From Chloroflexota bacterium (GTDB taxonomy: Bacteria > Chloroflexota > Anaerolineae > UBA2200), in NCBI GenBank assembly GCA_014360905.1, contig JACIWW010000001.1, positions 146,692-210,691 of the forward strand: 64,000 nucleotides of DNA, read 5' to 3'. Made by a program: the position numbers and the translations under genes. The notes below the pieces were generated by a model. The model searched no databases, had not been told where the DNA came from, and saw nothing but the letters and a program-made list of their open reading frames with translations. Positions 47,984 to 60,921 of the stretch are shown piece by piece. The stretch's first letter is position 1. The number at the start of each line of letters is the position of its first letter.

Positions 47984-48793
47984 TTAGATGCATAAGCTGC
48001 GCAGCGTGGCAAGCGCACGCTGGGCACAGGTATCTGCATCGGGCTTTGGCATGGCTTCAACGGAAAGATATCCACCATTATAGCCAATCTCCCGCAATAC
48101 CGCAATCACCTTGGCAAAATCAATATGCCCTGCACCGGGATACCAGCGGTTGGAATCAGCCACGTGTACATGGAGAAGGCGACCACCTGCCAAGCGCATC
48201 GCTTCTTCAAGTGAGACTTCTTCGATATTCGCGTGAAAGGTGTCGAAAAGCAACCCAATGTTGCCTGCGCCAATCGTCTGGATGCACTCCAAACCCTCGG
48301 CTACGGTATTGATCAGGTTTGTTTCATAGCGGTTGAGTGGCTCCAGTACAAGGTGAACATTTGGCATGGCGTACTGAGCGCACTCAGCAAGGGCAGTAAT
48401 TAGCCACTCCATTGCTTGCTCACGCGAGATGCCTTTCTGCACCTGTCCTCGAATTAGTCCAATGATGACCATGGCTTGCAAGGTTCGGGCAAAATCGATA
48501 TGCTTTTTGACGCGCTCGACTGCCCGCCGTCGCACCTTTTCCTGCGGGTCAGTGAAGGAGAGTCCCTCTTCGCCGTAGGCCTGGCCTGTACCAATAGCCG
48601 GTACCTCCAGATGAAGCCGGCACAACACCTGTTGCACATGAGTTACGTCAAGCAAGCTAGGGTCACGCACTGCCAGCTCGACACCATCGTAGCCCAAGTG
48701 CGCCATTTTCGCGGCATTTTGCTCCCACTCGCCCTTGTAGGCTACGCCCTCGAAGGCAGTCCGTTGCGTAGAAAGGACAATGCTACATTTCAT
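47984..48793 (-). CDS. Sugar phosphate isomerase/epimerase (xylose isomerase-like TIM barrel)
   Basis: 269 aa. ...LGYDGVELAV..., ...HVHVADSNR... and the length fit the AP-endonuclease-2 / xylose-isomerase-like TIM barrel family. Confidence 0.75.
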   Translation of the reverse strand: MKCSIVLSTQRTAFEGVAYKGEWEQNAAKMAHLGYDGVELAVRDPSLLDVTHVQQVLCRLHLEVPAIGTGQAYGEEGLSFTDPQEKVRRRAVERVKKHIDFARTLQAMVIIGLIRGQVQKGISREQAMEWLITALAECAQYAMPNVHLVLEPLNRYETNLINTVAEGLECIQTIGAGNIGLLFDTFHANIEEVSLEEAMRLAGGRLLHVHVADSNRWYPGAGHIDFAKVIAVLREIGYNGGYLSVEAMPKPDADTCAQRALATLRSLCI

Positions 48794-49637
48794 CTACAAA
48801 TCCCTTGAAAGGCCCTGGATTTTCCATCTTCAACGAAGTAACAAGAGCAGCAAAGCAACATGCCTCTGCAGGCGAAGAGGTCAGCCTCCGAGCCAGATAG
48901 GCTGCAAAGCACGTATCCCCGCGCCCTGTCCTGCCTTTCAGTTCCCTTGGTGTGAATGGTGCTTCGTATTCCATCCCATCGGCGTAAACCAACACTCCTC
49001 CAGCGTGGGTTAGCACGAGCTCGCGGGGGCCATAGCCAGCCAACTCCCTGGCTGCTGCCTTTAGGTCAGTTTTGCCAGTAAGAACTTGAGCCTCGACATC
49101 GTCCGCTTTGAGAAAATGAACGCAGGAGAGACCATCCACCTTTTGTGGCCAGTCTCTAAAAACCAGTTCGCCTCCTTCACGCACTCGTACAAATCCCTGC
49201 ACGTCCAATGCGACTGGCCCTCTTTCAGCAATTGCCCGTACGAATGGAATATCCACCTCGCCAGCCATGATAGGACCAATCAGCCATATCTTGGCTGCAA
49301 TGGAAGGCACATCAGTCAGACGAAATGGCCCAGCAAAGCCCAAGGGTGTACACACACGTCGGTCCATGTCTGGGCTGAGATACACATTCCGAATACCTGA
49401 ACTCTGCTTTGCAGGCCGGGCAAAAACCAGGATGCCTGCTGCCCTCAATTCATCTAGGCGTGGTAAATCTGCTTTCGCCAGCCGCGTCACAACTGCCACT
49501 TGCAAACCGAGCCGACGCAAGGCAAGCGCACCATAATAGACCGAACCGCCGGAGGCGACCTCTTCATTGCCGCCAAAGACCAGTTCATCCTTGGCGAAAT
49601 GGCCAATGACGGCGATGTCTGCAGAAAAGCGAGCCAT
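48783..49637 (-). CDS. PfkB family carbohydrate kinase
   Basis: MARFSADIAVIGHF... and GRGDTCFAAYLARRL near the C-terminus (PfkB signature 2). The ATG at 49637 leaves a 5-nt gap to the upstream stop; the alternative TTG at 49679 would overlap by 37 nt. Confidence 0.7.
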   Translation of the reverse strand: MARFSADIAVIGHFAKDELVFGGNEEVASGGSVYYGALALRRLGLQVAVVTRLAKADLPRLDELRAAGILVFARPAKQSSGIRNVYLSPDMDRRVCTPLGFAGPFRLTDVPSIAAKIWLIGPIMAGEVDIPFVRAIAERGPVALDVQGFVRVREGGELVFRDWPQKVDGLSCVHFLKADDVEAQVLTGKTDLKAAARELAGYGPRELVLTHAGGVLVYADGMEYEAPFTPRELKGRTGRGDTCFAAYLARRLTSSPAEACCFAALVTSLKMENPGPFKGFVDEM

Positions 49638-49642
49638 TGCGA

Positions 49643-50611
49643 TTAAAATGGATAGGCCAGGGTGTAGATATGCCTCCAACCCTGCTCAAAGGGTTGCTTG
49701 GTCACCGCTTCCAGCTCTTCCGCTGAACGCATCGAGACCATCTCTGCGGGCGGCAACTTCCCTGGTGGGAAGGTCGCCATGATATCCTTGACCAGCTTCT
49801 CCAGATAGTCCAAAAGTGCCTCGACCCCAGCACGTGCCTTCTCGATGTCTGCTAAGGTAGCCTTTCCCACCACTCCTGGTTGATAAGCCGCTACCTCGAT
49901 CGGGCCGCACCCAGCATGTCCATACCAGGCGATAGGGCGTTGCAGGAGGTTGCCGGCTTTATCAATGTGCCCCTCGGGGAGAAAGCCAAGTGGCTTGGTA
50001 TCTACTGCGTCCTCCATTTTCACATACTCTGGCAAGAGTGCCAGCGACCAGCTAGTCTCCACTTCATCAGCGTGGATAAAGTTGGTCTCGTAAGGACCTC
50101 CTTGCCCCTTCGTCTTGAGGTATGCAGGAATGGCATGGTACCAGTTGACATTGACGAAAATCCCTGGCACCTGGAACGTCTTGGCAAACTGATGAATGGC
50201 GGTTGGGATTACGTATTCCTGACCATGGCCATTCAGTAGGATCTGTTTGCGAAATCCGGCATTCCAAAAGCCAGCCATGATCGCCTTCAACATGCCAATA
50301 AAGTACTCCTCAGGGACAACAATCGTCCCAGGCATGCCCACGTGATGATAAGGGTGCGAGCCAAACCACAGCGGTTGGGAAATAGTGCAGCCAGTAGCGA
50401 GAGCCACCTGCTCTGCCATGCGGGTGACTAGAAAGGTGTCCTCCCCATAAGGTGCATGTGGCCCATGAGCCTCCGTAGACCCAATAGGAATGATAATGAG
50501 GTCGCAGGTCTTGAGACGCTGCTCAATCTCTTTCCCTGTCATGTTCTGGAAATAGAGACCATTAGCATGTTCCATATGCCCACCCTGTGGTGGAATTTGC
50601 CATTTACCCAT
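49643..50611 (-). CDS. Creatininase family amidohydrolase
   Basis: IIPIGSTEAHGPHAPYGEDT is the family metal-binding motif. ATG with RBS AAAGGAGGAAG. Confidence 0.7.
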   Translation of the reverse strand: MGKWQIPPQGGHMEHANGLYFQNMTGKEIEQRLKTCDLIIIPIGSTEAHGPHAPYGEDTFLVTRMAEQVALATGCTISQPLWFGSHPYHHVGMPGTIVVPEEYFIGMLKAIMAGFWNAGFRKQILLNGHGQEYVIPTAIHQFAKTFQVPGIFVNVNWYHAIPAYLKTKGQGGPYETNFIHADEVETSWSLALLPEYVKMEDAVDTKPLGFLPEGHIDKAGNLLQRPIAWYGHAGCGPIEVAAYQPGVVGKATLADIEKARAGVEALLDYLEKLVKDIMATFPPGKLPPAEMVSMRSAEELEAVTKQPFEQGWRHIYTLAYPF

Positions 50612-50722
50612 TGTTCTCTTCCTCCTTTTAATCATCCTTGATCGCTTATCTCATAGACTCACAGAGCCCAAGAACAACTCCAGTAAATTGTGAAAGGATT
50701 GCCTAAGAGAGATTGCAGGTTA

Positions 50723-59816: not shown

Positions 59817-59835
59817 ACTCGGGTTTCCTCCTCTT

Positions 59836-60846
59836 TTATGTATTTTCCTTGCATCGGGTACACGAAGCCCGCACAATCAGTTCGCCCTGCAGCACAATAT
59901 TGTGCACATCCTTCTTCCCTGAGAGCAGTTCGAGCAGCATACGCATAGCTAGTTGCCCCATCTCATGCTTTGGCTGGGCTACCGTGGTCAGCGAGGGGTC
60001 AACATAGGCTGCCAGTGCGATGTCGTCAAAACCGATCACGGACATGTCTTGAGGCACGTGCACTCGTGCCTCCTTCAATGCCCTCAGCGCTCCGATAGCC
60101 GTCATGTCGTTGTAACAGAAAATGGCAGTAGGTGGCTGGGGCAAGGAGAGCAAGCTCTGTACCCCCGTTTGTCCACCTTCCATCCGACCATTGCCGCTGG
60201 TGACCAAGCGAGGGTCATATCGGATCCGATGAGATTTCAATGCCTGCCTATAGCCATGCAGGCGATCGCGATTGGAACTGACTTCGGGGGATCCACCAAT
60301 ATAGCCGATCCTTCTATGTCCCAATTCAATCAGGTACTCTGTGGCCAAGCAGCCGCCATGGACGTTGTCCGTGGCTACGGACCAGACATACCGACCAGCC
60401 CGTTGATTATTGATGAGCACAACTGGCACCTTCATCTCTTCGAGCAGAGGGAGATAGAGGTCCCCTACCCGAGAAGAAGTTACGATAACCCCATCTACGC
60501 GATTCTCGTGGAGGAGGCGTACCACGGCGACTTCACGTTGTGGCTGAGCATTGGAATTGCAGAGGAACACGCTGTAGCCATGATCCAGCGCTAGTTCCTC
60601 CACCCCGCGCACGATCTCGGCTACAAAAGGATCAGCAATCGTGGTAACAACCAAACCGATGGTGCGAGTGCTCTGTGTTACCAGGCCGCGAGCGACACCA
60701 CTGGGTACATACCCCATTTCCTCAGCAAGACGCCGTATCCTGCGCTTGGTCTCATCGTTGACCAGGGGACTGTCTCTAAGCGCTCGGGAGACGGTGGAAT
60801 GGGAAACTCCTGCTGCTTTGGCCACCTCTTTGATGGACACGCCCAT
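59836..60846 (-). CDS. LacI family transcriptional regulator (second)
   Basis: HTH MGVSIKEVAKAAGVSHSTVSRAL. ATG with RBS AAGGA. Only 19 nt separate it from the downstream dehydrogenase, so it is first in the operon. Confidence 0.85.
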   Translation of the reverse strand: MGVSIKEVAKAAGVSHSTVSRALRDSPLVNDETKRRIRRLAEEMGYVPSGVARGLVTQSTRTIGLVVTTIADPFVAEIVRGVEELALDHGYSVFLCNSNAQPQREVAVVRLLHENRVDGVIVTSSRVGDLYLPLLEEMKVPVVLINNQRAGRYVWSVATDNVHGGCLATEYLIELGHRRIGYIGGSPEVSSNRDRLHGYRQALKSHRIRYDPRLVTSGNGRMEGGQTGVQSLLSLPQPPTAIFCYNDMTAIGALRALKEARVHVPQDMSVIGFDDIALAAYVDPSLTTVAQPKHEMGQLAMRMLLELLSGKKDVHNIVLQGELIVRASCTRCKENT

Positions 60847-60872
60847 GGCTGCATCCTTGACGCCAGGTATTT

Positions 60873-60921
60873 TGCACACGTGTGCATTTAATATTTTAAC
60901 AGAGAATAGCAACCTTGTCAA
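60873..60921 (-). promoter_or_regulatory. Sigma70 promoter (TTGACA-N17-TAAAAT on - strand) with abutting perfect 14-bp palindrome TGCACACGTGTGCA (candidate LacI operator)
   Basis: Reverse complement reads TTGACAaggttgctattctctgtTAAAATattaaaTGCACACGTGTGCA...AAGGATGCAGCCATG, the same promoter-then-operator layout as at the first lacI gene. Confidence 0.45.

Follow-up and report, generated by a model that had tools for sequence, protein, structure and literature searches.

A LacI-headed gene cluster of a Chloroflexota bacterium, probably a version of the Thermotoga-type inositol route

What compound is broken down by a gene cluster in which a creatininase-family hydrolase lies among dehydrogenases, PfkB kinases and the genes of an importer resembling those for polyamines? 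The question is raised by a 64,000-nucleotide stretch of the genome of a Chloroflexota bacterium (assembly GCA_014360905.1, contig JACIWW010000001.1, positions 146,692 to 210,691; hereafter the window), in which 13 co-directional open reading frames (ORFs) on the minus strand fill positions 47984-60921. A first-pass annotation had recognized a LacI-controlled, inositol-related catabolic cluster here, a view borne out by the LacI domains and four iol equivalogs described below, and had gone on to propose a nitrogen-containing cyclitol, a lactam or an Amadori-type compound as the substrate of a possibly undescribed pathway. Judged from its protein families, the cluster is very probably a version of the Thermotoga-type (IolG-IolM-IolN-IolO) inositol route under a LacI-type repressor.

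Core enzymes of the cluster and the route they suggest

All 13 ORFs of the tightly packed minus-strand cluster, and the families previously named for them, were confirmed with Pfam. When the gene starts were refined against homologues (several mechanically listed ORFs began too early), the genes occupied 47984-60846. They comprise three AP_endonuc_2 (xylose-isomerase-like) TIM barrels, two PfkB proteins, one Creatininase and one GFO_IDH_MocA protein, an ADH_N/ADH_zinc_N protein, an ABC_tran+TOBE_2 protein, two BPD_transp_1 proteins, an SBP_bac_8 protein and a LacI+Peripla_BP protein, with Pfam E-values ranging from about 1e-8 to 1e-50. Enzyme identity was decided by the cut-offs of the curated equivalog models of NCBIfam, and four genes that share one strand within 13 kb were assigned in this way. 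IolG (inositol 2-dehydrogenase of the Gfo/Idh/MocA family; 57575-58609, minus strand like all genes of the cluster) scored 471 bits on TIGR04380 (cut-off 355), and IolM (scyllo-inosose 3-dehydrogenase, a Zn-dependent alcohol dehydrogenase; 58659-59816) scored 572 bits on NF041097 (cut-off 450). IolN (3-dehydro-scyllo-inosose hydrolase with a creatininase fold; 49643-50611) scored 533 bits on NF041098 (cut-off 245), and IolO (5-keto-L-gluconate epimerase, a TIM barrel; 47984-48793) scored 360 bits on NF041099 (cut-off 300). Identity to the Thermotoga counterparts is 54% for IolG, 49% for IolM and 44% for IolO, and IolN is 74% identical to TM0413 of T. maritima MSB8 along 317 residues without a gap. 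The core enzymes are thus identified by curated-model scores and by a characterised orthologue (TM0413).

The Pfam family name Creatininase favors another reading, namely a pathway for a nitrogen-containing cyclitol, lactam or Amadori compound in which this enzyme opens a cyclic amide and a polyamine-type system imports the substrate. The best sub-cut-off matches of the ATPase and permeases (PotA/B/C and PhnT/U/V), the spermidine/putrescine label carried by homologues of the binding protein, and the fact that no ligand class was resolved for that protein are also consistent with it. However, the IolN protein reached only 79.8 bits on the true creatininase model TIGR04448, whose cut-off is 235, as against 533 bits on its own model, and its neighbors are the IolM, IolG and IolO equivalogs. 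Pfam identified none of the cluster genes as an aminotransferase, deaminase, amine oxidase or deglycase, and the binding protein showed no match to PotD. The reaction of IolN is the hydrolysis of a carbocyclic diketone, not of an amide, and the NCBI pipeline gives the name "3-dehydro-scyllo-inosose hydrolase" to a nearly identical IolN of a related metagenome-assembled genome (MAG). The family scores, together with the similarity to TM0413, largely refute the nitrogen-compound reading, which we consider extremely improbable. An annotation trap is corrected in this way: "creatininase" and "polyamine transporter" point here to the ring-opening hydrolase of a described inositol route, not to nitrogen-compound catabolism.

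Nor does the suggestion of an undescribed pathway hold, as IolG, IolM, IolN and IolO are equivalogs of the described Thermotoga-type route. The T. maritima pathway and operon are presented as a novel myo-inositol route in PMC3553997 and PMC3750489; the intermediates are given in PMC5931981, and IolO is cited as 5-keto-L-gluconate 4-epimerase in PMC12632266. The pathway is known already, and the replacement of a regulator or a transporter is routine for catabolic operons.

In the Chloroflexota bacterium, the importer of the ATP-binding cassette (ABC) type would take up inositol or an inositol derivative, IolG would convert myo-inositol into scyllo-inosose, and IolM would convert scyllo-inosose into 3-dehydro-scyllo-inosose. 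IolN would then open the ring through C-C cleavage to give 5-keto-L-gluconate, which IolO would epimerise to D-tagaturonate, and this product would pass into a hexuronate/2-keto-3-deoxygluconate (KDG) pathway encoded elsewhere in the genome. A side entry may be provided by TimB (55896-56732), a TIM barrel that aligns with Bacillus subtilis IolI (PDB 1I60) at E 8.7e-58, residues 3-276 against 3-277. IolI is the isomerase that converts 1-keto-D-chiro-inositol into scyllo-inosose (PMC3176187), and since TimB is a full-length homologue of it, D-chiro-inositol can probably also be used via the operon, its product 1-keto-D-chiro-inositol being fed in by this IolI-like inosose isomerase.

The third TIM barrel, TimA (56737-57567), belongs to the ketose-3-epimerase/IolO superfamily. 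It scored 161 bits on the IolO model (cut-off 300) and 139 bits on that of D-psicose 3-epimerase, and its best PDB matches were TM0416 (1e-33) and D-tagatose 3-epimerases (1e-29). Its gene sits between those of IolG and IolI in four related loci (L002, L084, L085 and L086) and upstream of IolI in a degraded one (L081), whereas locus L087 has one TIM barrel only at this place.

The presence of an IolG equivalog and an IolI homologue would also fit a canonical Bacillus-type iol operon, with IolE, IolD, IolB, IolC, IolJ and IolA encoded outside the window. Against this, the best cluster scores on the IolE and IolC models were 27-35 bits, far below the cut-offs of 290-300, and the 33 window ORFs scanned outside the cluster, a set without the four very large ORFs (1218 to 2111 amino acids; 12837-24674 and 36685-43020), contained no thiamine pyrophosphate enzyme (IolD), IolB or class II aldolase family. 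The absence of IolD, IolB and aldolase noted in the first-pass annotation thus stands for the ORFs scanned. IolM, IolN and IolO make up a complete alternative route, and the absence of IolE, IolD, IolB, IolC and the aldolase (IolJ) is explained by the Thermotoga-type route, which bypasses those steps. The canonical reading was rejected on the family scores, and its chance of being correct is minute. The first-pass annotation had taken membership in characterised inositol orthologous groups as the outcome that would count against its proposal; the genes do essentially fall into such groups, but those of the alternative pathway and not of the canonical one.

The window cluster thus shares with B. 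subtilis iolABCDEFGHIJ the first oxidation (IolG) and an IolI homologue, and probably the substrate class, myo- and D-chiro-inositol. It differs in having no IolE, IolD, IolB, IolC, IolJ or IolA, and in the manner of ring opening, which here would follow a second oxidation (IolM) and be achieved by IolN hydrolysis, whereas in the B. subtilis route it takes place after dehydration.

The T. maritima cluster consists of TM0411-TM0416 and inoEFGK, TM0418-TM0421 (Rodionova et al. 2013, Environ Microbiol 15:2254, as relayed in PMC3750489, PMC3553997 and PMC5931981), and the order in the Thermotoga locus compared here (L080) is iolR(ROK)-iolM-iolN-iolG-iolK(PfkB)-iolO-FTR1-inoEFGK-TIM barrel. Both clusters combine the IolG, IolM, IolN, IolO and TM0415-type kinase families with an ABC importer and a dedicated repressor that has a single operator at its own promoter. 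The regulator is, however, a ROK protein in Thermotoga and a LacI-family protein here, the gene order is different, and the binding protein and permeases of the window are not orthologous to InoEFG. There are also two kinase paralogues here as against one, an IolI homologue and TimA are added, and the host belongs to Chloroflexota rather than Thermotogota.

The two kinases, the transporter and the weighing of the inositol reading

Both PfkB proteins of the cluster, which we call K1 (48783-49637, overlapping IolO by 11 nt) and K2 (50723-51610), belong to the TM0415 family. K1 matches PDB 1VK4 (E 5e-48), K2 matches 1VK4 and 5YSP (E about 4e-51), and both are 37-38% identical to the kinase of the Thermotoga locus L080. 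TM0415 is a pyrophosphate (PPi)-dependent myo-inositol 1-kinase of the ribokinase family (Nagata et al. 2018, PMC5931981), in which PPi use is set by K171, F221, R229, R232 and M266 together with the motif RXGRGD (PMC5931981). In a MAFFT alignment with TM0415, all five residues are kept in both K1 and K2, and the motif reads RTGRGD in K1 and RSGRGD in K2; both proteins are therefore predicted to use pyrophosphate, not ATP, as the phosphoryl donor.

The acceptor pockets of the two kinases are unlike each other. In K1, residues D11, I76, N78, Q141 and R145 are kept and two are changed (S89C and L116I), so that its pocket resembles those of TM0415-type candidates, whereas K2 carries I76L, N78L, S89I and L116S relative to TM0415. 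The K2 pocket (L/L/I/S) is that of candidate No. 47 of Nagata et al. and is close to that of No. 49 (Levilinea saccharolytica), a PPi-dependent homologue that made several inositol phosphate isomers and whose true acceptor the authors infer to be different (PMC5931981). Because the pocket residues differ, K1 is probably an inositol kinase that phosphorylates myo-inositol, while K2 probably has a different acceptor or acts at a different position, its acceptor being uncertain. An adjacent pair with both pocket types is recorded in Anaerolineae bacterium SM23_84 (PMC5931981). In the window, K1 and K2 flank iolN inside a catabolic operon. The family to which K2 belongs is large: 5402 proteins among the scored candidates matched at E<=1e-20, all generically named. 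The K2 gene comes immediately after that of the ATPase in the window and in L002, L084, L085, L086 and L087; homologues with 73-76% identity are found elsewhere (L082 and L088), where their neighbors include an RpiR regulator, a sugar-type ABC system of another kind and the phosphate-transport genes PhoU_div-PHO4. Paired PPi-type kinases in an operon offer a concrete gene context in which the role of this large kinase family can be tested.

The transporter genes encode a substrate-binding lipoprotein (SBP_bac_8; 54449-55687), permease A (BPD_transp_1; 53522-54370), permease B (BPD_transp_1; 52686-53525, overlapping permease A by 4 nt) and an ATPase with a TOBE_2 domain (51614-52684), all assigned with Pfam. 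The first-pass annotation had called the system PotABCD-type. A loose resemblance to PotA, PotB and PotC is present (permease A is best matched in NCBIfam by PhnU and PotB, permease B is PotC-like and the ATPase PotA/PhnT-like), but every score is below its equivalog cut-off (PotA 364/482, PotC 117/326 and PotB 94/348 bits), and the binding protein matched no PotD model at E<=1e-5. The ATPase is 45% identical to Thermotoga InoK, and the permeases are merely 24% identical to their Thermotoga counterparts. Chloroflexota metagenomes commonly contain homologues of the binding protein (57-85% identity), which JGI labels 'putative spermidine/putrescine transport system substrate-binding protein'. 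In L084-L087, such a homologue comes after IolG and either one or two TIM barrels, and partly so in the degraded L081; in L082, the binding-protein and transporter genes stand apart from IolG and the TIM barrels. This gene context says more about the substrate than the polyamine label does, and the ABC system would import inositol or an inositol derivative.

Several observations weigh against the Thermotoga-type reading. The InoE transporter of Thermotoga reportedly bound inositol phosphate in vitro. T. maritima did not grow on inositol (PMC3750489). With these two results the true substrate is uncertain even for the T. maritima system. The Michaelis constant (Km) of TM0415 for myo-inositol is 12 mM (PMC5931981), a value that casts doubt on its physiological acceptor, and phosphorylation of inositol makes no obvious sense where the first enzyme uses free inositol. 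None of the genes that would carry D-tagaturonate further (uxaB/uxaA or uxaE/uxuB/uxuA, kdgK and kdgA) was found among the window ORFs scanned. As for the binding protein, BLASTP gave no match to the Thermotoga InoE homologue at E<=1e-3, and a PDB sequence search returned no relative. Its AlphaFold model (pLDDT 77) was matched by Foldseek to generic cluster-D binding proteins at 11-18% identity and TM-scores of 0.45-0.58, among which polyamine, iron, sugar-phosphate (AfuA and VcA0625), UgpB/glycerophosphodiester and oligosaccharide binders were about equally weak, so that no ligand class can be inferred from the modelled fold. Given these indiscriminate fold matches, the sub-cut-off scores and the lack of a PotD match, the "polyamine-type" label is uninformative on the substrate.

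Alternatively, the substrate would be a phosphorylated inositol, either a monophosphate or a phosphodiester (e.g. glycerophosphoinositol), imported as the ester by the ABC system. K1 and K2 would then work near equilibrium (Ins-P + Pi <-> inositol + PPi), perhaps with one kinase per enantiomer or position, releasing free inositol for IolG and conserving the ester bond as PPi. In agreement with this, two PPi-type kinases with unlike acceptor pockets adjoin the transporter genes, K2 keeps its place after the ATPase gene in all six loci named above, a phosphatase of the HAD superfamily lies between the kinases in L084 and L085 and a phosphodiesterase-family gene is present in L084. K2 homologues adjoin PhoU_div-PHO4 genes in L082 and L088, a phosphate transporter gene of the PiT family starts 22 nt after IolO in the window, and the sugar-phosphate binders AfuA and VcA0625 are among the fold matches. 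The reported binding of inositol phosphate by the InoE transporter points the same way. Other PPi-dependent kinases are known to be reversible (PMC5931981, introduction). On the other side, no reverse activity is reported for TM0415, the fold matches do not separate ligand classes, the PiT and PhoU_div genes are not found in the syntenic L002, InoE is not a relative of the binding protein, and the thermodynamic argument is our own qualitative reasoning. On balance, a phosphorylated substrate seems unlikely.

A broader form of the same idea, in which K1, K2 and the binding protein constitute a PPi-linked inositol-phosphate branch widespread in Anaerolineae, appears quite unlikely. If it were true, the two kinases would reversibly interconvert free inositol and two inositol monophosphates (or the phosphates of two isomers) against Pi/PPi, and inositol phosphates from lipids or osmolytes could serve the cell as food, with the ester bond conserved as PPi. 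The TM0415 family would thereby gain its first physiological role, none having emerged since the finding of the PPi kinase in 2018.

The kinases could instead act on a ring-opened intermediate (e.g. 5-keto-L-gluconate, D-tagaturonate or a 2-keto-3-deoxy acid) and not on inositol, so that a phosphorylated lower branch would replace part of the hexuronate/KDG route and TimA, a paralogue of IolO, would epimerise such an intermediate. Nagata et al. raised this possibility for TM0415 in view of the 12 mM Km, and they suspected another true acceptor for No. 49, whose pocket is K2-like and which gave several inositol phosphate isomers (PMC5931981). The lack of uxa, uxu and kdg genes among the window ORFs scanned, and the existence of a PPi-using KDG kinase in another 5-keto-L-gluconate pathway (PMC12632266), would fit as well. 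However, K1 retains the myo-inositol contacts seen in the TM0415 crystal structure, the homologues tested by Nagata et al. showed no activity on 2-keto-3-deoxygluconate (PMC5931981), and K2 homologues also occur away from iol genes (L082 and L088). We regard ring-opened acceptors as very unlikely; the Thermotoga-type route from inositol is the preferred reading. The PPi-using KDG kinase just mentioned, LguH of Luteolibacter, was considered as a model for K1 and K2 and rejected: it is annotated as an ordinary KDG kinase, PMC12632266 draws no link to the TM0415 group, and the homologues of Nagata et al. are inactive on KDG.

The LacI-family regulator, its operator and the promoters

The first gene of the cluster encodes a LacI-family transcriptional regulator of 336 amino acids (59836-60846, starting at ATG 60846) with a LacI helix-turn-helix and Peripla_BP_1/3/4 domains in Pfam. 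The protein is below every NCBIfam equivalog cut-off, and its orthologues, with 59-62% identity, head related clusters. The perfect 14-bp palindrome that had been noticed at its promoter was confirmed: TGCACACGTGTGCA occurs as a single exact copy in the window, at 60873-60886, and the probable LacI start codon follows 26 nt downstream of it. It has a central CG and the shape TG....CG....CA, which is typical for operators of the LacI family. The only window sites with three mismatches to it are four, a chance-level number, and are located elsewhere; no copy was detected before the binding-protein gene or before iolN at <=3 mismatches. An identical 14-mer lies upstream of LacI orthologues in L005, L009, L012, L031 and the Anaerolineae-type loci L084, L086 and L087, and L011 has a copy with one mismatch. 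Two near-copies precede IolM in L084 and L085, in which IolM is grouped with a divergent IolN paralogue as a unit of its own (in L084 these sites are at 17320-17429), and 1.3 Mb of fetched loci contained no further site at <=2 mismatches. The palindrome is thus a credible, probable operator of the LacI-family repressor, and the regulator, together with an exact operator conserved across Chloroflexota genera, may serve as a regulon marker.

The best sigma-70-like site in a promoter scan of the region, TTGACA-17 nt-TAAAAT with a TG before the -10 hexamer (60893-60921, minus strand; 11 of 12 positions), lies so that the palindrome is directly 3' of its -10 hexamer. TTGACA and an equally spaced -10 hexamer, with the 14-mer just behind them (in one case with a single mismatch), are kept upstream of the LacI orthologues in five Thermoflexus loci, whereas the spacer and the surrounding sequence have diverged. 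The LacI-family protein would bind the palindrome, which overlaps the region of the transcription start, and keep the whole unit repressed until a pathway metabolite is present.

From LacI to IolO, the intergenic gaps are 19, 49, 7, 4, 208, 78, -4, 1, 3, 111, 5 and -11 nt, so that, of the "several overlapping genes" of the first-pass annotation, overlap itself is confirmed, but with refined starts there are two real cases (-4 and -11 nt). The two larger gaps (208 and 111 nt) could hold internal promoters, which speaks against a single transcript. A second promoter-like site, TTGTTA-17-TATAAT (55839-55867, minus strand; 10 of 12 positions), is indeed present in the 208-nt gap before the binding-protein gene; this gap is conserved in the closest relative, L002, only at the ribosome-binding site and start codon, and because the site itself is not conserved there, the evidence for an internal promoter is weak. 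An Rfam scan of 45500-62000 at E<=0.1 found no RNA element. One autoregulated transcript from the LacI promoter is the simplest reading.

Related loci and neighboring genes

The closest related locus, L002, belongs to a Chloroflexota MAG with an IolN 94% identical to that of the window, and it has the same 13-gene order. The module LacI-IolM-IolG-TimA-IolI-binding protein-permeases-ATPase-K2-K1 recurs in metagenomic Chloroflexota contigs and MAGs (L002 and L084-L087), which share the module and the operator with the window at 58-95% protein identity. The insertion of IolN between the two kinases, followed by IolO, is found in the window and L002 only, in contrast to L084-L087. L086 and L087 are without IolN and IolO within 10 kb, and L084 and L085 have the extra HAD phosphatase gene between the kinase genes and a divergent IolN paralogue (44%).

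In L084 (4685-6801 and 15185-15964), which reaches further upstream than L085, the phosphodiesterase-family gene and a transporter of the MFS type lie upstream, and the HAD gene between the kinases is of the Hydrolase_3 family; these phosphatase and phosphodiesterase genes are hints of phosphorylated inositol substrates. Locus L081 (Anaerolineales, CP070814; 1503-11245) seems to carry a decayed module, with a 134-residue IolG fragment, TimA, IolI and a binding protein without permeases; it is followed by the housekeeping genes ffh, rpsP and rimM, and a divergent IolN (44%) and IolO are on the opposite strand.

The distribution of IolN is wider than that of the module. In a set of 60 IolN loci, each from a species-representative genome and no shorter than 9 kb, an IolO-like gene is nearby in 38, IolM in 30, IolG in 14, a TM0415-type kinase in two and this binding protein in one. 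The IolM-IolN(-IolO, -IolG) core is found in Chloroflexota (including Thermoflexus), Dictyoglomaceae, Bacillota, Methylomirabilota, Bathyarchaeia and many Asgard archaeal MAGs. IolN proteins 57-68% identical to that of the window were found in dozens of Promethearchaeota (Asgard) and Bathyarchaeia MAGs (L022-L025, L028 and L032-L076), often beside IolM, IolO and IolG, and a pair of K1 and K2 homologues (61% and 56% identity) is present in one Bathyarchaeia locus (L024). In Asgard and Bathyarchaeia archaea, the Thermotoga-type route of inositol breakdown seems common.

Downstream of the cluster on the same strand are the PiT-family (PHO4) phosphate transporter gene (46966-47961), which begins at a TTG codon 22 nt beyond the end of IolO, and a gene for a PhoU_div/DUF47 protein (46280-46906), both assigned with Pfam. 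They are possibly co-transcribed with the cluster, but they are not a conserved part of it: because they are absent from the post-IolO position in L002, they may be passengers. K2-type kinase genes (73-76% identity) adjoin PhoU_div in L082 (19758-21257) and L088 (10001-12611), with PHO4 next in L088, and PPi kinases may be recurrently linked to phosphate transport.

Upstream of the operon, a 157-residue predicted lipoprotein without a family match is encoded at 61010-61483 (minus strand), followed by a divergent gene (61759-63633, plus strand) for a GH5 glycosidase that has a Glyco_hydro_5_C domain and weakly resembles endoglycoceramidase (103 bits, cut-off 700). At the other end of the window, a plus-strand cluster (184-11771) looks like one for the catabolism of hydroxyproline and/or sugar acids; it contains an SDR gene, aconitase X (AcnX), an FAD oxidase (DAO), two proline-racemase-family genes, two DHDPS-family genes, an IlvD/Edd-type dehydratase and an aldehyde:ferredoxin oxidoreductase. 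A maltodextrin-type utilisation locus at 25992-33973 (plus strand) has a second LacI-family regulator, an SBP_bac_1 ABC system and two GH13 alpha-amylase-family genes, and URO-D-family genes occur at 24754-25836 and 33756-35060. The very large ORFs at 12837-24674 and 36685-43020 are of 1272, 1272 and 1218 amino acids (the two of 1272 in tandem) and of 2111 amino acids. A 2022-residue ORF in L002 is syntenic with the last of these, and in L086 an alpha-2-macroglobulin-like gene of 1972 codons adjoins the LacI gene.

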